A stretch of DNA of 32,000 nucleotides from Cupriavidus necator (GCF_016127575.1 NZ_CP066018.1:3360001-3392000), one strand, 5' to 3'. Shown: positions 9,990-31,479, counted from the first letter of the stretch. The notes: generated by a model not told the origin, from the letters alone. Numbers and translations are program-made.

Positions 9990-10003
9990 TTGATCCGGAT
10001 CAA
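9990..10003. promoter_or_regulatory. perfect FNR/Anr box TTGATCCGGATCAA in a divergent promoter region
   Basis: 10/10 match to TTGAT-N4-ATCAA. A -10-like TAGACT (10025-10030) lies on the + side. A TACGCT (complement of 9963-9968) lies on the - side. Both sit about 21-22 nt from the box edge, which is class II geometry. Confidence 0.75.
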
Positions 10004-10097: not shown

Positions 10098-11456
10098 ATG
10101 CAACTGCAATTCCTCGGCGCGACCGATACGGTCACCGGCTCCAAGTACCTGCTCGATACCGGCCGTCACCAGGTCATGGTCGACTGTGGCTTGTTCCAGG
10201 GATACAAGACCCTGCGCCTGCGCAACTGGGACCCACTGCCGCTCGATCCGGCCAAGCTCGACGCCGTGGTGCTGACCCATGCCCACATCGACCACAGCGG
10301 GTATTTGCCCCTGCTGGTGCGCAACGGCTTCCGCGGCAGCGTGCACTGCACCATGGGCACCGCGCAGCTGTGCGGAATCCTGTTGCCAGACAGCGCCCAC
10401 CTGGCGGAAGAAGACGCCGATTATGCGAACCGCAAGGGCTTCTCGCGTCATCGGCCCGCATTGCCTCTTTACACAGCAGCCGACGCTGCACGAGCAATGC
10501 GGCGGCTCCAGCCGATGCAGTTCGGCAAGCGCTTCCAGGTAGTGCCCGGCGTAGAGGCCGAGTTTGCCCGGGCCGGACATATCATCGGCGCGGCTATCGT
10601 CACGTTGTTCGTCGACGGCAAGCGCATCGTCTTCTCAGGCGACCTCGGGCGGCAGCAGGACATCGTCATGCGCGCGCCGGAGATGGTGCGTCAGGCGGAT
10701 TACCTGCTGGTGGAGTCAACCTACGGCGACCGGCGGCATCCGGACGACGACCCGCTCGATGTGCTCGGCGAGATCGTCAGCCGGACGATTGGCCGCGGCG
10801 GCAGCTTGATCATCCCCGCTTTTGCGGTAGGGCGCACGCAGAGCCTGCTGTACTGCCTGCACCGCCTGCGCGAACTCAAGCGAATCCCCGACGTGCCGGT
10901 GTACCTCAACAGCCCGATGGCCATCGACGCGACCATGATTTTCTCGCTGCATCCGGAAGAGCTGCGCATCAGCCGCGAAGAGTGCGCCGCAGCCTGCAAT
11001 CTCGCCACCCCGGTGCAGAGCATGGAGCAGTCGATCTGGCTGAACCACGACCGAAGTCCCAAGATCATCCTGGCTGGCAGCGGCATGGCTACCGGTGGTC
11101 GTGTGGTCCACCATATTGCCGCCTACGGCCCGGACCCTCGCAACACCGTTCTGCTTTCCGGCTTCCAGGCGGCGGGTACGCGCGGCGCAGCGCTGGCCGC
11201 AGGCCGGCGCGACATCCGCGTCCATGGCAAGGACATCGCCGTGCATGCGTCGGTGGAGCAGGTGGAGAACCTGTCCGCACATGCCGATGCCGCGGAACTC
11301 ATGACCTGGCTCGGCGGCTTTCACCAGGCGCCGCGGCGTACGTTTGTCGTGCACGGCGAGCCACAGGCAAGCGATGCGCTGCGCCAGCACATCGAGCGCG
11401 ACCTGCGCTGGGCGGTCACCATGCCGGAATATCGGCGCTCCTATCCGCTCGACTGA
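10098..11456 (+). CDS. beta-CASP family metallo-beta-lactamase-fold hydrolase (RNA-metabolising MBL type)
   Basis: N-terminus MQLQFLGATDTVTGSKYLL, with HxHxDH (THAHIDHSG) and beta-CASP-like motifs (VESTYGD, SAHAD, VVHGE). ATG 10098 has AAAGGA 7 nt upstream. Confidence 0.9.
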   Translation: MQLQFLGATDTVTGSKYLLDTGRHQVMVDCGLFQGYKTLRLRNWDPLPLDPAKLDAVVLTHAHIDHSGYLPLLVRNGFRGSVHCTMGTAQLCGILLPDSAHLAEEDADYANRKGFSRHRPALPLYTAADAARAMRRLQPMQFGKRFQVVPGVEAEFARAGHIIGAAIVTLFVDGKRIVFSGDLGRQQDIVMRAPEMVRQADYLLVESTYGDRRHPDDDPLDVLGEIVSRTIGRGGSLIIPAFAVGRTQSLLYCLHRLRELKRIPDVPVYLNSPMAIDATMIFSLHPEELRISREECAAACNLATPVQSMEQSIWLNHDRSPKIILAGSGMATGGRVVHHIAAYGPDPRNTVLLSGFQAAGTRGAALAAGRRDIRVHGKDIAVHASVEQVENLSAHADAAELMTWLGGFHQAPRRTFVVHGEPQASDALRQHIERDLRWAVTMPEYRRSYPLD

Positions 11457-18821: not shown

Positions 18822-19244
18822 CTAACGGACGGTAATGCGTTGCTGGCTTGAGCTTTCCTTCTTGGGCAGCACCAGGCGCAGCACGCCGTCCTGGAAGCTG
18901 GCATCGATCTTTTCCGTGTCGATGTTGCCGTCCAGCGTAAAGGCACGCTGCATCGAGCCGCTGTAGCGCTCCTGGCGGATCACGCGGTCGCCTTCTTTTA
19001 CCTCGGAAGCTTTCTCGAGCTTGGCGGAGATCATCACAGTCCCACGGTCTACGCTGACGTTGATGTCTTCCTTCTTCACGCCTGGCAGGTCGGCGGTAAT
19101 GGTGAAGCTGCTGTCGGACTCGGCCACATCGACCTTGAATGGCAGCTCGGTGTCTGGCCCGATCCGCCAATTGCGTAGCATGCTCTGCAGCATGTCGCCG
19201 AGCGGTTCGATCGAGAACGGGTCGTAGCGCTTGATGTTGCTCAT
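18822..19244 (-). CDS. Hsp20/alpha-crystallin family small heat-shock protein
   Basis: Alpha-crystallin core text: PFKVDVAESDSSFTITADLPGVKKEDINVSV...ERYSGSMQRAFTLDGNIDTEKIDASFQDGVLRLVLPKK. AGGAGA lies upstream of the ATGATG start (19247/19244). Confidence 0.9.
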   Translation of the reverse strand: MSNIKRYDPFSIEPLGDMLQSMLRNWRIGPDTELPFKVDVAESDSSFTITADLPGVKKEDINVSVDRGTVMISAKLEKASEVKEGDRVIRQERYSGSMQRAFTLDGNIDTEKIDASFQDGVLRLVLPKKESSSQQRITVR

Positions 19245-19314
19245 CATGGTCTCCTGGATGACGGCGCCGTGCGCGCCGTGTTTTCTTACTTTGGCAAGCC
19301 GGGGCGGTTGCGGT

Positions 19315-19328
19315 TTGCTTTGCATCAA
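19315..19328 (-). promoter_or_regulatory. FNR box (reads TTGATGCAAAGCAA on the minus strand) upstream of hsp20
   Basis: 9/10 match to TTGAT-N4-ATCAA, 71 nt upstream of the hsp20 start in the hsp20/fnr divergent intergenic region. Confidence 0.65.
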
Positions 19329-19420
19329 ACGCCGGCACATTGCCCCGACTGCTTGCACGGGATAAGGGCATGACGTCACATGCGCCAGCTTGGACAGCCA
19401 GGGCGTTCGGCATGACCGGC

Positions 19421-19437
19421 GTCAGGGAACCCTGACA
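19421..19437 (+). promoter_or_regulatory. 17-bp palindromic motif GTCAGGGAACCCTGACA between hsp20 and fnr
   Basis: Perfect 7-bp inverted repeat GTCAGGG/CCCTGAC with a 2-nt spacer. An extra CTGACA half-site lies at 19453-19458, 21 bp downstream. It is 15/17 identical to 13907-13923. Confidence 0.5.
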
Positions 19438-19610
19438 AGTGACGCTGCATTTCTGACACGCAACTCAGCGCAGCCTTCTAGGCGCGGAGCGCGGGCAGGC
19501 CAATACTTCAGTCAAACACATCGCGGCGCGCACGAATATGCGGTCCGCCAGACGACACGGGTGAAGGCGAGGGTCGGGATAAGGGAAAGGCCGGCAGGCT
19601 GGAGACAACC

Positions 19611-20405
19611 ATGTTTGACTTGCATACTGAAGCTGATGCTGTTTGTGACGCCCCCAACATGTCCGTCGCGCTCTCCAGGCGTGAGGATGAGACGTTTGCG
19701 GAGCCGGCGCCGGATCCCGCGCGGGCGCGGTGCACAACTTGCATGATGCGGAACATCTGCATGGCCGCCAGCCTGGAGGCCGGCGAAATGGCCCGCCTGG
19801 ACTCCGTCGTGCGGAGCTGGCGTTCGGTCAAGCAGGGCGAACGGCTGTACCGGGCGGGCGACCCGTTCCGCAGCCTCTATGCGGTCCGCGTCGGCTCGTT
19901 CAAGACCGTGGTGGCGCCGGAGCGGGGCAAGGAGACCATCTCCGGCTTCTACATGGCCGGGGACTCAATCGGCATGGACGGCGTTTGCCAGGAAACCCAT
20001 AACTGCGATGCGATTGCCCTGGAAGACAGCGTGGTCTGCGTGATCCCGTTTCACCAGCTCGAGGCGCTATGCCGCGAGATCAAGCCGCTGCAACGCCACC
20101 TGCACAAGATGTTCAGTGCCGAGATCGTGAGGGAATCGCGCCAGATGATGCTGTTAGGCAACAACATGTCCGCCGAGCAGCGCGTGGCGGCATTCCTGTT
20201 GAACGTCTCGGCACGCTACCGCGAACGCGGCTATTCGGCCACGTCCTTTGTGCTGCGCATGACTCGTGAAGACATCGGCAGCTTCCTTGGCATGACCCTG
20301 GAAACCGTGAGCCGGACCTTGTCCAAGTTCCAGCAGGAAGGGCTGCTGACAGTGCAGGGCAAGTCCATCGAGCTGCTCAATCTGGACGCCCTGGACGCTC
20401 GCTAG
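19611..20405 (+). CDS. fnr: FNR/Anr-type oxygen-sensing CRP-family transcription regulator
   Basis: The N-terminal Cys cluster C-X2-C-X5-C ([11 protein letters not shown]) plus the fourth Cys in VVCVIPF matches the E. coli FNR C20/C23/C29/C122 pattern. There is a cNMP-like barrel and a recognition helix [11 protein letters not shown] (E--SR). ATG has GGAGA upstream. Confidence 0.93.
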
Positions 20406-20431
20406 CGGCGTCATACGCGGCAAGGCATGAC

Positions 20432-21994
20432 GTGAACGATGCCAGTTCTGATCCCGGAATTCCCGGCCGTCCCGGCGATGTCGTGGCCGCCGCCGCGCCC
20501 CGCGAAGTGGGGGCGCTGGTGTTCCGGCCGCTCGAGATCGATACGTGGCAGGAGCATGTCATCTATATGCATCCGGATTGCCCCGTCTGCCGCGCCGAGG
20601 GCTTTTCCGCGCAGGCGCGCGTGCGCGTGCAGATCGGCGACAGGTCGTTGATCGCCACGCTGACGCTGCTGGGCGCGCCGCTATTGAACACGGGCGAAGC
20701 GAGCCTGTCGTTGAGCGCAGCACGGACGCTTTCGGCACGCGCCGGCGATGTCGTGCATGTCACCCATGCGCCCGCGCTGGAGTCGGTGCGCGCACTGCGT
20801 GCCAAGATCTATGGCTGCCACCTGGACAGCGTCCAGCTCGACGGCATCATCGGCGACATCAGTGCAGGGCGGTACGCCGACGTGCATATTGCGGCATTCC
20901 TCACCGCCTGCGCGGACGGTCGCATGAGCCTGCGCGAGACTGTCGACCTGACCCGGGCCATGGTCCGGTCCGGCCAGCGCTTGAACTGGGACCGCGAGGT
21001 GGTTGCCGACAAGCATTGCGTCGGTGGGCTGCCGGGCAATCGCACCACGCCGGTCGTCGTGGCTATCGCGGCAGCGGCCGGGCTGCTGCTGCCCAAGACC
21101 TCATCGCGCGCGATCACCTCACCCGCCGGCACCGCCGATACGATGGAAGCCCTGACCCGCGTGACGCTGGATTCGACGGAACTGCGGCGCGTGGTAGAAC
21201 AGGTCGGGGCTGCATTGGTGTGGGGCGGCGCGCTGAGCCTGAGTCCCGCGGACGACGTGTTGATCCGCGTGGAACGCGCGCTGGATATCGACAGCGATGC
21301 GCAGCTGGTGGCCTCAATCCTGTCGAAGAAGATTGCCGCCGGCTCCACCCACGTGCTGATCGACGTGCCGGTGGGGCCGACGGCCAAGATCCGCGAAGAC
21401 AGCGATCTGGCGCGCCTGGATCTCGCCATGACCAAGGTCGCGGACGCGTTCGGGCTGAAGCTCCGGATTCTGCGCACCGACGGCTCGCAGCCGGTGGGCC
21501 GGGGCGTCGGCCCTGCGCTCGAGGCGCTCGACGTGCTGGCCGTGCTGCAGTGCCAGCCGACGGCGCCCGCCGACCTGCGCGAACGCTCGCTGCTGCTGGC
21601 GGGCGAGCTGCTGGAGTTCTGCGGTGCGATACCGCCCGGGCAGGGACGGCTGCTGGCCGGCAGCCTGCTCGACAGTGGTGCCGCCTGGGCCCGGTTCCAG
21701 GCGATCTGTGAAGCGCAAGGGGGGCTGCGCACCCCGGGGCAGGCGGTGTTCCGGCGCGACGTGGTCGCAGCCCGCAGCGGCATCGTGACGTCCGTCGACA
21801 ACCGGCACGTCGCGCGCACGGCGAAGCTGGCCGGGGCGCCGCGCCGGCAGGTGGCCGGGCTGGAACTGCATGTGCGCGCCGGCGACGAGGTCGTAGCCGG
21901 CGCACCGCTCTGTACGCTGCATGCCCAGGCGTCCGGCGAACTGGAATATGCGTTCAGCTACGCCCTGGCGCATGACCCCTTCCGCATCGAATAG
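20432..21994 (+). CDS. thymidine phosphorylase family protein of the long, AMP-phosphorylase-like type
   Basis: 520 aa. An extra ~90-aa N-terminal domain precedes the glycosyl-transferase family 3 core ([39 protein letters not shown]) and the C-terminal PYNP domain. GTG start lies 26 nt after the fnr stop. Confidence 0.85.
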
Positions 21995-22155
21995 CTCCAG
22001 TGGGCGGCCGGCAGCGGCCGCCCGCACCAGCAGCACCGGCACCGTCGATCTGCACACCTCCCCCTCGGCCACGCTGCCCATCACCAGGTGCCGGAAGCGG
22101 TTCCCGGGTGCGGGAGCGCAGACATTGCTTCCGGCTTAGGCGGGGGGTAGGCCGG

Positions 22156-22169
22156 TTGATGCGGGTCAG
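22156..22169 (+). promoter_or_regulatory. weaker FNR-like site TTGATGCGGGTCAG
   Basis: 8/10 match to the consensus. Its centre is 54 bp upstream of the stronger box at 22210-22223. Confidence 0.35.
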
Positions 22170-22204
22170 CGGGCGGGCGGTCGGCCGGCCAAGGGGACTC
22201 TGGG

Positions 22205-22278
22205 CTTCGTTGACAGCCATCAACACGCATGCGCTTGCGACCGCTACTTTGGAAATAGCCCATAGCCGAAGCCGAGGT
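22205..22278 (+). repeat. promoter-plus-leader module, copy A (FNR box, -10, leader, SD-like GAGG)
   Basis: Aligns by eye with 25333-25405. 41/48 are identical from the box through the -10, and 16/18 in the segment ending GCCGAGGT. There is one indel in between. Confidence 0.7.
22210..22223 (+). promoter_or_regulatory. FNR box TTGACAGCCATCAA
   Basis: 9/10 match. A -10-like TACTTT lies at 22245-22250, 21 nt after the box. It is 217 nt upstream of the PNPOx-like gene. Confidence 0.65.
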
Positions 22279-22439
22279 AGCTGGGGGGAGAGGCAAGACA
22301 TGGGCCTGAACCAGCCATTGCTGTCGTGGAATGAAGAAGATGCGGGGCATTTGTCCAGGAACGTGCCGGCTGGAGATCGCTCCCCCGGCCGTGCCGGCCC
22401 CGTTGGTGTTGTTTGTACTGGCGTAACAGGTGACCAAAT

Positions 22440-22892
22440 ATGGACGAAGAGACCAGACAGAAGATCCTGACCTTGTTGAACCAACACAGGATCATGACGC
22501 TTGCCACCTTGAGGCCGGATGGCTGGCCTCAGGCTACCACTGTGGGTTATGTGAATGAGGGTCTCACGCTCTACTTCCTCTGTGGTCCGGGCAGCCAAAA
22601 GGCGGCCAATCTGGCATTGGATGACCGTGTCTCGCTGACAATTGATCACGACACGCCAGATCTCATGGCGATTACCGGCCTGTCCATGGCGGCGCACGCG
22701 CAACCGGTGGTCGATGTGGCCGTAGCGGAGAGAATCCTCCGGATGTTCCCATTGAAGTATCCGGAGCAGATTGCCTTGCCAGTGCCGATGCCAACCGCGG
22801 AGGACGTCCGAATATTCAGGGTGACCCCGACAGTCATTTCCGTGCTCGACTATTCCAAGGGCTTCGGACATACGGATCTTGTCAGCTGCTGA
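22440..22892 (+). CDS. pyridoxamine 5'-phosphate oxidase-family (FMN-binding split-barrel) protein
   Basis: 150 aa with ILTLLNQHRIMTLATLRPDGWPQATTVGY...LYFLCGPGSQKAANL...VSLTID, typical of small PNPOx-like flavoproteins. GC3 is lower than in the surrounding genes. Confidence 0.8.
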   Translation: MDEETRQKILTLLNQHRIMTLATLRPDGWPQATTVGYVNEGLTLYFLCGPGSQKAANLALDDRVSLTIDHDTPDLMAITGLSMAAHAQPVVDVAVAERILRMFPLKYPEQIALPVPMPTAEDVRIFRVTPTVISVLDYSKGFGHTDLVSC

Positions 22893-28960: not shown

Positions 28961-30736
28961 CTAGGGTTCCAGCACGTAGGTACCAGGAGCGTCCGCGAGC
29001 CCCTGGCCCGGCGCCTGTCGCGTGCAGCGCGCTGTCGAGTGGGCCACTAGCCAGTCATGCCACGCCGGCCACCAGGAACCGTCGCGGTACACAGCTACGT
29101 TGAGGAATTGCTCCGGGCTCAGGTAGGGCGCGGCGGGCAATCGCGTATGCACATGGTAGCGCCGGCCCGGGTGGCCCGGCTCGGACACGATGCCTGCGTT
29201 GTGGCCGCCCGAGGTCAGCAAGAAGGTCAGTTCAGCCTTGGTCAGTAAGTGCAGCTTGTACACGGAGCGCCAGGGCGAGACGTGGTCGTGTTCGGTGCCA
29301 ACCACGAAAAGCGGGAGGTCGAGGTCCGACAGGGCGACGGGCTGTCCGCCCACGCACAGCTTGCCGGTGGCCAGCTCATTGCCCAGGAACAGCTTGTGCA
29401 GGCATTCCGAATGCAGGCGGTAAGGCAAGCGGGTGGTGTCGCGGTTCCAGGAGACCAGATCGTTGGCGCGCAAACGTTGGCCGAGCAAATACTCGCTCAT
29501 TACGCGCGACCAGATCAGGTCCTGGGCGTTCAGCATCTGAAAGGCAGACTTCATCTGAGGCCCGTCCAGATATCCCTGACTCCACATGAGGGCGTCGAGC
29601 GTGGCGAGCGAGCTCTTGTCGATGAACAGGCCCAGTTCGCCCGGATCATGGAAATCGGTCTCTGAGGCAAAGAGCGTCATGCTGGCCAGTGGCCCGCCGG
29701 CGGCGTCGCGGGCGAGCATGGCGGCACCCGTGGCAAGCAGGGTGCCGCCCAGGCAATACCCGGCGGCGTGGACGTGCGCGCCGTCGCAGCGCGCGTGCAC
29801 GGTGTTGAGCGCGGTCAGAAGCCCGGCCTCCAGATAGGTGTCAAGCCCGAAGTCGCGGGCCGAGGCGTCCGGGTTCTTCCATGAAATCATGAACACGGTA
29901 TGGCCGCTCTCGACCAGGTAGCGCACCAGCGAATCCTCGGGCTTCAGGTCGAGGATGTAGTACCGCATGATCCAGGACGGCACGATCAGCACCGGCTCGC
30001 GCCAGACTGTATTGGCGCCAAGGGCGGGCGCATACTCGATCAGTTCAATTAGTGCGTTGCGGAACACCACCTTGCCAGGCGTGCGCGCCACGTCGCGCCC
30101 GGGTAGAAATTCCAGCGCGGGGCGCCCCGCAGGCAGCCCAGGCACCTTTGACAACAGCTCACTGGCGTCCTGCAGCCAGTGATGGGCGCCTTGCAGGAAG
30201 TTGGCGCCGAAGGTGCTCGAGGCGGTCCTGGCAATGGTCGGATTCATCCACCAAACATTGCCGGGCGCGAGCAGGTCAAGCCATTGCCGGGCGCAGAAGG
30301 CGACGATGTGCTGGTGATGACGCGACAGGCCGTCAATATCCTGCGTCAGCGACTCCCAGAAGGCTTCGTTGCGCATGAACGCATCGCGCCAGCAGCGATA
30401 AGGCCAGTCCTGCCAGCCGGCATCGGCAAAGCGCTGATCGCTGAGGTCAACGGACGGCGGCTCGGCCGCGGTCGGCAACAGCCGTGGCCAGTCCTCGATG
30501 CTGTGCTGCAGCCACACCTGCCATGCCTGCACAATCTTTGCCGGGGAGATGCCGAGCTGCAGCGCCCAGTCGAGTCCGGCCAGACTTGCCGAGATCACCG
30601 ACAGGCCCCCGGTGGCACGGGCCAGGCCGGCGCGGATCTGCTTGTCCATCCAGACTTGCGCCGGTATGGCGGCCTGCGGCGCGCATTCCGGCATGGCCGA
30701 CAGGCTGGGCGGTGACGTCCTGTCGTCGATCCTCAT
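28961..30736 (-). CDS. phaC: class I poly(3-hydroxyalkanoate) synthase
   Basis: 591 aa with the lipase-box-like GYCLGG carrying the catalytic Cys, and downstream GTEHDHVSPW and GGHNAG segments. ATG 30736 overlaps the phaB TGA (ATGA). The longer 707-aa ORF is rejected. Confidence 0.92.
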   Translation of the reverse strand: MRIDDRTSPPSLSAMPECAPQAAIPAQVWMDKQIRAGLARATGGLSVISASLAGLDWALQLGISPAKIVQAWQVWLQHSIEDWPRLLPTAAEPPSVDLSDQRFADAGWQDWPYRCWRDAFMRNEAFWESLTQDIDGLSRHHQHIVAFCARQWLDLLAPGNVWWMNPTIARTASSTFGANFLQGAHHWLQDASELLSKVPGLPAGRPALEFLPGRDVARTPGKVVFRNALIELIEYAPALGANTVWREPVLIVPSWIMRYYILDLKPEDSLVRYLVESGHTVFMISWKNPDASARDFGLDTYLEAGLLTALNTVHARCDGAHVHAAGYCLGGTLLATGAAMLARDAAGGPLASMTLFASETDFHDPGELGLFIDKSSLATLDALMWSQGYLDGPQMKSAFQMLNAQDLIWSRVMSEYLLGQRLRANDLVSWNRDTTRLPYRLHSECLHKLFLGNELATGKLCVGGQPVALSDLDLPLFVVGTEHDHVSPWRSVYKLHLLTKAELTFLLTSGGHNAGIVSEPGHPGRRYHVHTRLPAAPYLSPEQFLNVAVYRDGSWWPAWHDWLVAHSTARCTRQAPGQGLADAPGTYVLEP

Positions 30737-31479
30737 TGCAGGTGTTGCCCGCCGTTGATGGCAAAATTCGCGCCAGTGACGAAGGCCCCGTCGTCGCTGC
30801 ACAGGTAAGAGATCAGCGCCGCGACCTCGGCCGGCTTGCCTAGCCGGCCGACCGGGATAGTCGGCAACACGTCCCGCTCGAGGATCTCGGCGGGCATGTC
30901 CGTCACCATGTGCGTATCCAGGTAGCCCGGCGAAACGGTGTTGACGGTGATGCCTTTGCGTGCGAGTTCCAGCGCCAGCGCCTTGGTGAAGCCATGTACC
31001 CCCGCCTTGGCGGCGGCATAGTTGGTCTGGCCAAAGGCGCCCCGCGAGGCATTGACCGAAGAAATATTGACGATCCGGCCCCAACCGCGCGCCAACATCG
31101 GCTCAACCAGCGGCCGCGTCATATGAAAGAGCGAGTCGAGGTCCGTGCGCAGCACGAAGTCCCAGTCAGCCTTATCCATCTTGCGCAGGGTCCGGTCGCG
31201 CGTGACCCCGGCATTGTTGATCAGAATATCGACGTCGCCGAGCTCGCTGCGCACTTGCGACACGCAGCGCTGGCAGGACGCGAAGTCCGTCACGTCGACC
31301 GGGAACGCCGTGAATTCGCGGCCGGCGGAGCGTTGCGTGCCGAGCCACTGGGCCACGTGGTCATTGTGTACGGAGTGCGTCACCACGACGCGCGCGCCGT
31401 CGGCCAGCAGCCGCACGGCAATCGCTTCGCCGAGGCCGCCCATGCCTCCCGTTACCAGGGCAATGCGTTGTCCGGCCAT
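30733..31479 (-). CDS. phaB: acetoacetyl-CoA reductase (SDR family)
   Basis: 248 aa. It has ALVTGGMGGLGEAI (TGxxxGxG), NNAG and YAAAK (YxxxK), with strong resemblance to PhaB. Confidence 0.92.
   Translation of the reverse strand: MAGQRIALVTGGMGGLGEAIAVRLLADGARVVVTHSVHNDHVAQWLGTQRSAGREFTAFPVDVTDFASCQRCVSQVRSELGDVDILINNAGVTRDRTLRKMDKADWDFVLRTDLDSLFHMTRPLVEPMLARGWGRIVNISSVNASRGAFGQTNYAAAKAGVHGFTKALALELARKGITVNTVSPGYLDTHMVTDMPAEILERDVLPTIPVGRLGKPAEVAALISYLCSDDGAFVTGANFAINGGQHLQ

Follow-up and report, generated by a model that had tools for sequence, protein, structure and literature searches.

Introduction

Archaeal AMP/nucleoside monophosphate (NMP) phosphorylases are the first enzymes of the 'NMP shunt', whose further enzymes are ribose-1,5-bisphosphate (R15P) isomerase and type III RuBisCO. 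Here we analyse a bacterial relative of these phosphorylases, encoded directly behind an fnr gene in a stretch of 32,000 nucleotides from Cupriavidus necator (GCF_016127575.1, NZ_CP066018.1:3360001-3392000; 'the window', from whose first letter all positions are counted). The gene pair had been singled out in an account made from the DNA alone (the sequence-only reading). We favour, by a modest degree, the view that the second gene encodes an NMP (ribotide) phosphorylase that works on the R15P to phosphoribosyl pyrophosphate (PRPP) side of metabolism and serves salvage in oxygen-starved, non-growing cells.

The closest characterized protein that we found is the AMP phosphorylase (AMPpase) of Thermococcus kodakarensis (4GA4/4GA5/4GA6, TIGR03327), which shares with the window enzyme an N-terminal domain, the NP-II core and the motif GGxPGN(K/R). 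The window enzyme differs in scoring under the family cut-off, in belonging to another clade, in having Cys for Ser in DKH(S/C), and in coming from a mesophilic proteobacterium. Moreover, the partners of the bacterial family are Prs-like, beta-CASP and PhnN proteins, not R15P isomerase and type III RuBisCO. Classical thymidine phosphorylase (TP; DeoA) and pyrimidine-nucleoside phosphorylase (PyNP) have the same catalytic fold, and their core phosphate-site and base-site residues are kept in the window enzyme. However, they lack the N-terminal domain, and differ in the loop after DKHS, in the KxSxR...GT segment and in gene context.

Three further systems bear on the locus. In Bradyrhizobium diazoefficiens, bll3117 (thymidine phosphorylase family), bll3116 (ribose-phosphate pyrophosphokinase) and bll3115 (MBL-fold hydrolase; MBL, metallo-beta-lactamase) belong to the core microoxic proteome and are also induced at the transcript level in microoxia (PMC6515984). 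Loss of fixK2 lowers expression of this predicted operon 6.6- to 30.6-fold, and a FixK2 box lies at -74 (PMC9104804). We equated bll3117 with the window phosphorylase family because both have one PGAP family name and the three-gene module is the same; a TTGAT-N4-ATCAA-type box and CRP/FNR-type control are further points of likeness. Bradyrhizobium keeps the three genes in a single operon, with the regulator gene at another site, whereas in C. necator the module is split, the Prs-like gene is gone and fnr lies directly upstream. The function of the operon is uncharacterized in Bradyrhizobium as well.

The second system is the lxa locus of Burkholderia cenocepacia, for which the published account (PMC3721108) lists universal stress proteins (USPs), alpha-crystallin, phospholipid-binding proteins, a sulphate transporter, a cation ATPase, a metal-dependent RNase, PhaC/PhaB and a CRP/Anr-like regulator, with TGA-N6-TCA at many promoters. 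According to the same account, the lxa-encoded Anr-like regulator is induced 17-fold by low oxygen. These gene functions overlap with those found in the window; C. necator adds the long-form phosphorylase gene, while the lxa tables in the accessible part of that account contain no TP-family gene. A B. cenocepacia Tn-seq paper does not mention genes of this type.

The third is Escherichia coli PhnN, a ribose-1,5-bisphosphokinase that converts R15P and ATP to PRPP and ADP (PMC9700705). It provides a precedent for a bacterial route from R15P to PRPP, and PhnN domains of equivalog grade are fused to phosphorylases of a sister clade. In the clade of the window enzyme, by contrast, the partner is a Prs homologue, and the window has no PhnN.

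Results

Family placement of the phosphorylase

The two genes, and the domain that sets the second apart, are as follows.

19611-20405, + strand: fnr, predicted FNR-type oxygen-sensing regulator, 264 residues, ATG start (open reading frame (ORF) listing, Pfam, NCBIfam)
20432-21994, + strand: long-form NP-II phosphorylase gene, 520 residues, GTG start (NCBIfam, PDB, Foldseek, clade and motifs)
20516-20770, + strand: extra N-terminal domain of the phosphorylase, residues ~29-113, beta-rich, with D49-C50-x-x-C53 (left uncovered by PyNP/TP alignments)

The phosphorylase is 100% identical to an entry named 'Putative thymidine phosphorylase 1 [Cupriavidus necator]', and family members are named 'thymidine phosphorylase' in annotation everywhere. 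It contains the three NP-II domains Glycos_trans_3N, Glycos_transf_3 and PYNP_C (Pfam). Among NCBIfam models it exceeded the cut-offs of TIGR02645 ('ARCH_P_rylase, putative thymidine phosphorylase'; 651.6 bits, cut-off 434.6) and NF003338 (669.3, cut-off 434). All of the classical models remained out of reach (TIGR02643, 136.6 against a cut-off of 570.7; TIGR02644, 185.4 against 409.05; NF004490, 196.3 against 269; NF004747, 133.6 against 559), as did TrpD (34.7 against 199). The score with TIGR03327, the archaeal AMP phosphorylase equivalog, was 452.4 bits (cut-off 535), and a C. necator paralogue, TP2, and other clade members were likewise under this cut-off.

Alignments of PyNP and TP to the phosphorylase begin only at residue 121-127, while the long-form NCBIfam models and the T. 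kodakarensis AMPpase alignment span residues ~30-520 (start 29-31), with positions 4-493 of TIGR03327 aligned to residues 31-520. The extra N-terminal domain is therefore real; it comprises ~85 residues, after a non-conserved leader of ~28 residues. The nearest solved structure in a PDB sequence search was the T. kodakarensis AMPpase (4GA5/4GA6, E 8e-98, N-domain included), and PyNP and TP structures followed at E ~1e-35 to 1e-22. An AlphaFold2 model was built from a 10-sequence alignment and is suited to coarse fold matching only (mean pLDDT 66, <50 for residues 223-287), with the strands of the N-domain at pLDDT 74-92. Its top Foldseek match was full-length 4GA5 (E 9e-43, 500 columns, 38% identity), with PyNP/TP second (~429 columns for PyNP) and TrpD after them.

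In a PyNP-rooted neighbour-joining tree of 105 sequences, without support values, the T. kodakarensis-like sequences were basal and separate. The window phosphorylase fell in a bacterial crown clade whose sister clade consists largely of N-terminally fused proteins. The motif GGxPG(N/S/D)(K/R)x and a 16-residue motif are common to all long-form clades, their PyNP counterparts being GGV-GDTT and AKMSGRGLGHTGGTID. From its profile, structure and motif matches, we assign the phosphorylase to the bacterial long-form NP-II enzymes, family TIGR02645, sister to the archaeal AMP/NMP phosphorylases. The sequence-only reading had thus placed both genes and the 26-nt gap between them correctly, and had named both correctly (ORF listing, Pfam). 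The N-terminal domain of ~90 residues that it described is present, at ~85. Its assignment to the AMP phosphorylase branch holds in that the protein is long-form, not DeoA/PyNP (TIGR02643, TIGR02644 and NF004490 all failed), and does not hold in so far as the protein falls outside the TIGR03327 equivalog.

The motif DKH(S/C)xGG has Cys (C196, DKHC) in the Prs-associated crown clade and Ser in the PyNP, T. kodakarensis-like and PhnN-fused clades; by homology with TP/PyNP, the Ser would be a phosphate-binding residue. The Cys pair of the N-domain D-C-x-x-C is invariant in 10 proteobacterial homologues, not across the wider clade. Together, C196 and C50/C53 could act as a redox switch in an oxygen-related context.

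The family is large, with thousands of matches in beta-, gamma-, alpha- and deltaproteobacteria, Bacteroidota, Legionella and others. Some distant long-form phosphorylases (P0158, P0178, P0196 and P0221; 900-1017 residues) contain an intein with a LAGLIDADG endonuclease in the catalytic domain.

Conserved neighbours in other genomes

We compared 80 related loci, 51-77% identical to the phosphorylase, with one genome scanned per species. They came from beta-, gamma-, alpha- and deltaproteobacteria, Legionella, Bacteroidota and others, and all flanking ORFs were clustered. A Prs-like gene was present at 71 of the 80 loci, on the same strand and a median of 20 nt downstream of the phosphorylase gene. 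A gene for a beta-CASP MBL nuclease lay directly upstream, on the same strand, at 56; this nuclease is akin to the catalytic portion of aCPSF1 and Cas14, with scores under cut-off for both. In the subset of 62 loci with complete flanks (>=2.5 kb on either side), an adjacent same-strand Prs-like gene (NF005537) was found at 51, a beta-CASP MBL gene at 42 and both at 37. The Prs-like protein scores above the cut-offs of both NF005537 and TIGR01251. No R15P isomerase or RuBisCO occurred among the 25 commonest neighbour clusters, and no deo-type neighbours were seen in the survey.

The paralogue TP2, which is 63% identical to the window phosphorylase, has the full module. Its locus reads MerR-DUF2933-ICMT-MBL-TP2-Prs-methyltransferase-...-heavy-metal ATPase, with overlapping stop and start codons. 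The surroundings of this module (L081:293-12475) comprise MerR, DUF2933, ICMT-like, CMAS-methyltransferase, heavy-metal P-type ATPase and YHS genes, and the gene for the ICMT-like membrane protein recurs at 20 of the 80 loci. The MBL-TP-Prs module travels with metal-stress genes too.

Two observations stand apart from the survey. A role in anti-phage defence was considered and rejected, with no PADLOC matches for the phosphorylase, the MBL, the Prs-like protein or FNR. One locus (L005, NVTD01000041.1), binned as 'Candidatus Wolfebacteria', has the Ralstonia-type order hsp20-MBL-prs-TP at 74% identity and with the spacing of true Ralstonia, and this contig is probably mis-binned or a contaminant.

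Kinase fusions in the sister clade

Among cluster representatives at 50% identity, many proteins of 590-690 residues carry an extra N-terminal domain. In the five such fusions that were scanned, this domain passed the PhnN equivalog TIGR02322 (177-208 bits, cut-off 156); the phosphorylase part passed TIGR02645 in three of the five and NF003338 in all five. One fusion of a Prs-like protein to a phosphorylase was also found (NF005537, 378.8 against a cut-off of 322). The PhnN fusions whose surroundings could be read all sit (3/3) 4-31 nt behind a gene for a QRPTase-family, PRPP-dependent transferase.

L084:5154-11517: PhnN-fusion locus behind a QRPTase gene
L085:2-2464: PhnN-fusion locus behind a QRPTase gene
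L086:2-2815: PhnN-fusion locus behind a QRPTase gene

Such an arrangement would allow a cycle in which the transferase builds a ribotide from PRPP, the phosphorylase cleaves it to base and R15P, and PhnN remakes PRPP. Read in this way, the fusions suggest that the long-form bacterial enzymes yield R15P. At L084 the fusion gene is followed by genes for FAD_binding_5 and Fer2_2/MoCoBD molybdenum-hydroxylase subunits. A pyridine carboxylate may pass through a closed PRPP cycle here, for example quinolinate -> NaMN -> nicotinate + R15P -> PRPP, and then be hydroxylated.

The fnr-phosphorylase unit

The product of fnr contains the Pfam domains cNMP_binding, HTH_Crp_2 and Crp. It narrowly missed the NCBIfam Fnr model PRK11161 (224.6 bits, cut-off 228), and given this near-miss we call it an FNR paralogue. 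In an alignment with the FNR of Aliivibrio fischeri (5E44; E 3e-52), its C41-x2-C44-x5-C50 and a central C143 pair with the cysteines of that protein, and the E--SR of the recognition helix is kept, with TLETVSR opposite TVETISR. We take the [4Fe-4S] ligands to be C20, C23, C29 and C122 in E. coli numbering. Because the cluster cysteines and the recognition helix align with those of FNR, the protein should be an oxygen-sensing FNR paralogue that binds TTGAT-N4-ATCAA. Conservation sets in only at residue ~39, so its true start may be a downstream Met.

Around the two genes we noted the following features.

18822-19247, - strand: hsp20 (alpha-crystallin), divergent from fnr (Pfam HSP20, synteny)
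19315-19328, no strand assigned: FNR/Anr-type box TTGCTTTGCATCAA in the hsp20/fnr divergent intergenic region (pattern search)
20406-20431, + strand: fnr-phosphorylase spacer, 26 nt, with an AAGG Shine-Dalgarno-like element (sequence)
22000-22025, + strand: 11-bp G+C hairpin without a U-tract, 6 nt past the phosphorylase stop codon (RNA fold)
22210-22223, no strand assigned: FNR box TTGACAGCCATCAA, one mismatch, in a 445-nt non-coding stretch (pattern search)

The fnr and phosphorylase genes form a compact two-gene unit on one strand, with the hairpin after the second gene. The spacer, cggcgtcatacgcggcaaggcatgac, has AAGG ~8 nt before the GTG and no space for a terminator, and consensus scans of the junction found no internal promoter or terminator, which is weak evidence either way. 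The region 21985-22060 folds at -34.6 kcal/mol (z -3.18 against shuffles), and the hairpin within it probably marks the 3' end of the fnr-phosphorylase transcript or stabilizes that transcript. Because the 26-nt spacer has no predicted promoter or terminator, the short gap is kept in two other species and a hairpin stands at the 3' end, the two genes are probably carried on one transcript.

The box at 19315-19328 is placed for the divergent hsp20: its centre precedes the probable start of that gene by ~74 nt, and the fnr ATG by ~290 nt. Downstream of the unit, a 445-nt non-coding stretch (21995-22439) separates the phosphorylase gene from a PNPOx-family gene (22440-22892). It holds, besides the box at 22210, a second FNR-like box at 22156 (two mismatches); both are unusually remote from the PNPOx-family gene, >215 nt upstream of it. 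The stretch may contain a long leader or a small gene missed by annotation. Rfam gave no match at E <= 1 across 19000-22600.

Gene order in Cupriavidus and Ralstonia

The beta-CASP partner of the module is also encoded in the window, away from the phosphorylase gene.

10098-11456, + strand: beta-CASP MBL-fold nuclease gene, aCPSF1/Cas14-like (Pfam Lactamase_B, Beta-Casp, RMMBL)
9990-10003, no strand assigned: perfect FNR box TTGATCCGGATCAA, ~100 nt upstream of the beta-CASP gene and by a divergent P-type ATPase gene

The mechanically called ORF starts at a TTG at 9990, which coincides with the FNR box; the real start should lie near 10098, because homologues begin at residue ~37. The protein scores 267.7 bits with the NCBIfam aCPSF1 model and 372.2 with Cas14, both under cut-off. 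Identity is 70% with the Ralstonia MBL and 41-58% with the MBLs of 50+ other loci, and by these values we regard the gene as the orthologue of the one directly upstream of the phosphorylase gene in most other genomes.

The closest phosphorylases outside Cupriavidus are those of Ralstonia (73-75%), where the order is hsp20-MBL-prs-DUF1488-TP, beside a class II ribonucleotide-reductase-like gene and a cytochrome c gene. In C. malaysiensis it is BON / usp-TP, with usp upstream of the phosphorylase gene. In C. pauculus an IS605 element splits the Prs-like gene; at this locus (L088:2298-10337) the insertion is IS605-family (Y1_Tnp, OrfB) and an IS66 transposase gene follows the phosphorylase gene. 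The module there is in a rearrangement-prone region. Only C. necator, C. laharis (gap of 31 nt) and C. alkaliphilus (40 nt) showed the order hsp20(-)/fnr(+)-TP(+). Direct adjacency to fnr thus occurs at one of the 80 related loci, plus C. alkaliphilus. The latter has the same upstream run as C. necator (Pat-like, BON, BON, CBS, hsp20), and the phosphorylase orthologues of the three species are 77-84% identical. Because the fnr-TP order is limited to three Cupriavidus species and other orders are found elsewhere, the fnr linkage is, on this comparison, a lineage-specific rearrangement of an older module that was already in a stress island.

The low-oxygen island

The Pfam survey of the window delimits an island at 2712-31479, downstream of guaA. 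Its genes are, in order:

SulP/STAS, DoxX, P-type cation ATPase
beta-CASP nuclease, USP, NarL/LuxR-type response regulator
Pat-like ACS/GNAT protein, two BON proteins, CBS protein, Hsp20
FNR, phosphorylase, PNPOx-family protein, TPM protein, alanine dehydrogenase
three more USPs, PhaC, PhaB-like reductase
FNR boxes in the window: 9990, 19315, 22210, 25338 and 26653

The survey counts five USP genes. TTGAT-N4-ATCAA boxes with at most one mismatch occur five times in the window against 0.29 expected, a number reached by none of 100 shuffles; with at most two mismatches there are 12 against 4.9 expected. The window has both the lxa-type gene content and the TGA-N6-TCA motif. Judged by gene content and motifs, it is an lxa-like low-oxygen stress island, dense in FNR boxes. 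We found no paper describing this island in C. necator, or low-oxygen expression of the phosphorylase gene there.

At its far end (28961-31479, - strand) the island holds an acetoacetyl-CoA-reductase-like gene together with a paralogue of polyhydroxybutyrate (PHB) synthase. This PhaC/PhaB pair has its counterpart in lxa (BCAM0296/0297), and PhaC2 is microoxia-induced in Bradyrhizobium; by analogy, a second pha set may make PHB when oxygen is limiting.

These comparisons bear on the rest of the sequence-only reading. It had named R15P isomerase and RuBisCO as the expected partners and reported neither in the window. We likewise saw neither among the window ORFs scanned, and the conserved partners across the 80 loci prove to be the Prs-like and beta-CASP MBL genes instead. 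The adjacency of fnr is no annotation artefact, as it recurs in C. laharis and C. alkaliphilus, but the tight linkage to the oxygen sensor that the reading stressed is a Cupriavidus-specific rearrangement. The proposed link to an anoxic programme gains from the FNR-box-rich island and the FixK2-dependent Bradyrhizobium operon, and loses from the lack of an FNR box within 280 nt upstream of fnr.

Discussion

The place of the enzyme in its family, the module, the fusions and the setting in the island were observed directly, and they incline us somewhat towards a phosphorylase of NMPs (ribotides), on the R15P to PRPP side, that contributes to salvage in oxygen-starved, non-growing cells. The enzyme would convert NMP and Pi to nucleobase and R15P. 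The NMPs would be supplied by the island's beta-CASP nuclease as it degrades RNA, or would be AMP that builds up once respiration stops. R15P would be routed to PRPP and pentose phosphates by the Prs-like partner encoded elsewhere, beside TP2; in the sister clade the fused PhnN kinase would handle it, and an R15P isomerase/RuBisCO step would be unneeded. The outcome would be salvage of nucleobase and pentose phosphate and trimming of the adenylate pool in such cells. In the C. necator lineage, a rearrangement would have set the gene behind the island's own FNR paralogue, with probable co-transcription. Which way the flux runs, and what the Prs-like partner catalyses, are inferred here.

Several points weigh against this proposal. 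The substrate is deduced from homology, fusions and neighbours, and the shared long-form motifs support relatedness without proving 5'-nucleotide specificity. The enzyme misses the archaeal AMP phosphorylase equivalog, and the tree that places it is rough. A literature search found no paper assaying a bacterial member of the clade, and none on the PhnN fusions or on the three-gene module as such, in a literature that is only partly searchable. The presence of a PRPP-synthase homologue beside an R15P-forming enzyme is chemically unexplained. In the window the phosphorylase gene lies 9 kb from the MBL gene and lacks adjacent partners, with fnr upstream and the 445 non-coding nt downstream; tblastn found no Prs-like or PhnN sequence anywhere in the window, the 445-nt gap included.

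The regulatory side has its own difficulties. The TP2 module has a MerR/heavy-metal ATPase context, not one of hypoxia, and an FNR-like box (at most one mismatch) lies <=300 nt upstream of the module at 5 of 52 loci (~1.5 expected). The module is therefore not intrinsically an anoxia module, and we rejected general FNR control of it; such control is recurrent, not general. A pattern search allowing two mismatches found no FNR box from 19329 to the fnr start. With no box within 280 nt upstream of fnr, co-transcription with fnr is on its own no proof of anoxic induction. Such induction of the pair is plausible by analogy with the 17-fold induced Anr-like regulator of lxa.

Much more tentatively, the phosphorylase, the beta-CASP RNase and the Prs-like enzyme may constitute an undescribed bacterial pathway of nucleotide phosphorolysis, switched on by FNR/FixK-type regulators. 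It would run from RNA through 5'-NMP to base and R15P, and on to PRPP (or to ribose 5-phosphate and ATP, by a reversed Prs reaction). It would salvage base and pentose phosphate, and would possibly conserve energy from the glycosidic bond. The active-site Cys of DKHC and the CxxC of the N-domain might confine activity to reducing conditions.

Could the juxtaposition of fnr and the phosphorylase gene lack regulatory meaning, as a by-product of island rearrangement, with transcription from a constitutive fnr promoter or from a promoter of the gene's own? We regard this as unlikely. The rarity of the adjacency would fit, as would the usp upstream in C. malaysiensis, the DUF1488/prs in Ralstonia, the insertion sequence that disrupts the C. 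pauculus module and the lack of an FNR box near the fnr start. On the other hand, three Cupriavidus species with phosphorylases 77-84% identical have kept the unit with a 26-40-nt spacer, the phosphorylase gene has stress genes (hsp20, usp, BON) around it in every arrangement, and the FNR paralogue of the B. cenocepacia island is itself induced by low oxygen (PMC3721108).

What else might the enzyme do? A PRPP-dependent phosphoribosyltransferase with TrpD-like chemistry, supplied with PRPP by the Prs-like protein and building a ribotide rather than cleaving it, appears quite improbable. In its favour, TrpD adopts the same fold and comes next in both structural and sequence similarity, a PRPP-synthase homologue passing TIGR01251 and NF005537 is an almost universal neighbour, and PhnN likewise makes PRPP. 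However, the similarity to TrpD is very weak, the phosphate-site motifs of a phosphorylase are retained (KTSSR...GTAD), and the PhnN fusions already have a PRPP user of QRPTase type upstream, which a cleave-and-recycle cycle fits better.

An ordinary thymidine or pyrimidine-nucleoside phosphorylase, salvaging (deoxy)nucleosides and set beside fnr by chance, is very improbable. It is what the annotation ((putative) thymidine phosphorylase) names, and the counterparts of PyNP motifs are kept: the K-H of DKH(S/C), the S-R and G-T of KxSxR...GTxD, the Arg in the ADxxxxxR stretch and S..KK. In addition, lxa-deleted B. cenocepacia is impaired on thymidine, ribose and deoxyribose (PMC3721108), although the accessible lxa tables list no TP-family gene. 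Against this, every classical model fails, the E-values of classical structures are ~60 orders worse than that of AMPpase, and the protein has the extra N-domain and an AMPpase-like loop after DKH(S/C)xGG, with an inserted Pro and basic residue. The neighbours, too, are Prs-like and beta-CASP genes, with PhnN and QRPTase in the sister clade, and none of deo type was seen.

Least probable of all is that the enzyme serves the NMP shunt as a true AMP phosphorylase of archaeal type, with R15P passing through ribulose-1,5-bisphosphate to RuBisCO (of which C. necator has form I enzymes): its closest solved and characterized relative is the T. kodakarensis AMPpase, with the N-domain common to both, and NMP shunts have been proposed for CPR (candidate phyla radiation) bacteria (PMC5113843), but the TIGR03327 cut-off is missed, the T. 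kodakarensis-like clade is basal and separate, neither R15P isomerase nor RuBisCO appears among the scanned window ORFs or the 25 commonest neighbour clusters, it is Prs-like and beta-CASP genes that recur beside the phosphorylase gene, and the sister-clade fusions indicate PhnN, that is, PRPP.

The phosphorylase is a member of a catalogued, functionally unverified family, and its adjacency to fnr is local to Cupriavidus and, taken alone, only moderately interesting. If the enzyme is a PRPP-linked NMP phosphorylase, R15P would be a regular bacterial metabolite outside phosphonate catabolism, and the family would represent a RuBisCO-independent bacterial counterpart to the archaeal NMP shunt. 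For low-oxygen islands such as lxa and those of the FixK2 regulon, which are important to Burkholderia persistence and rhizobial symbiosis, this would mean a defined function in nucleotide and RNA recycling.

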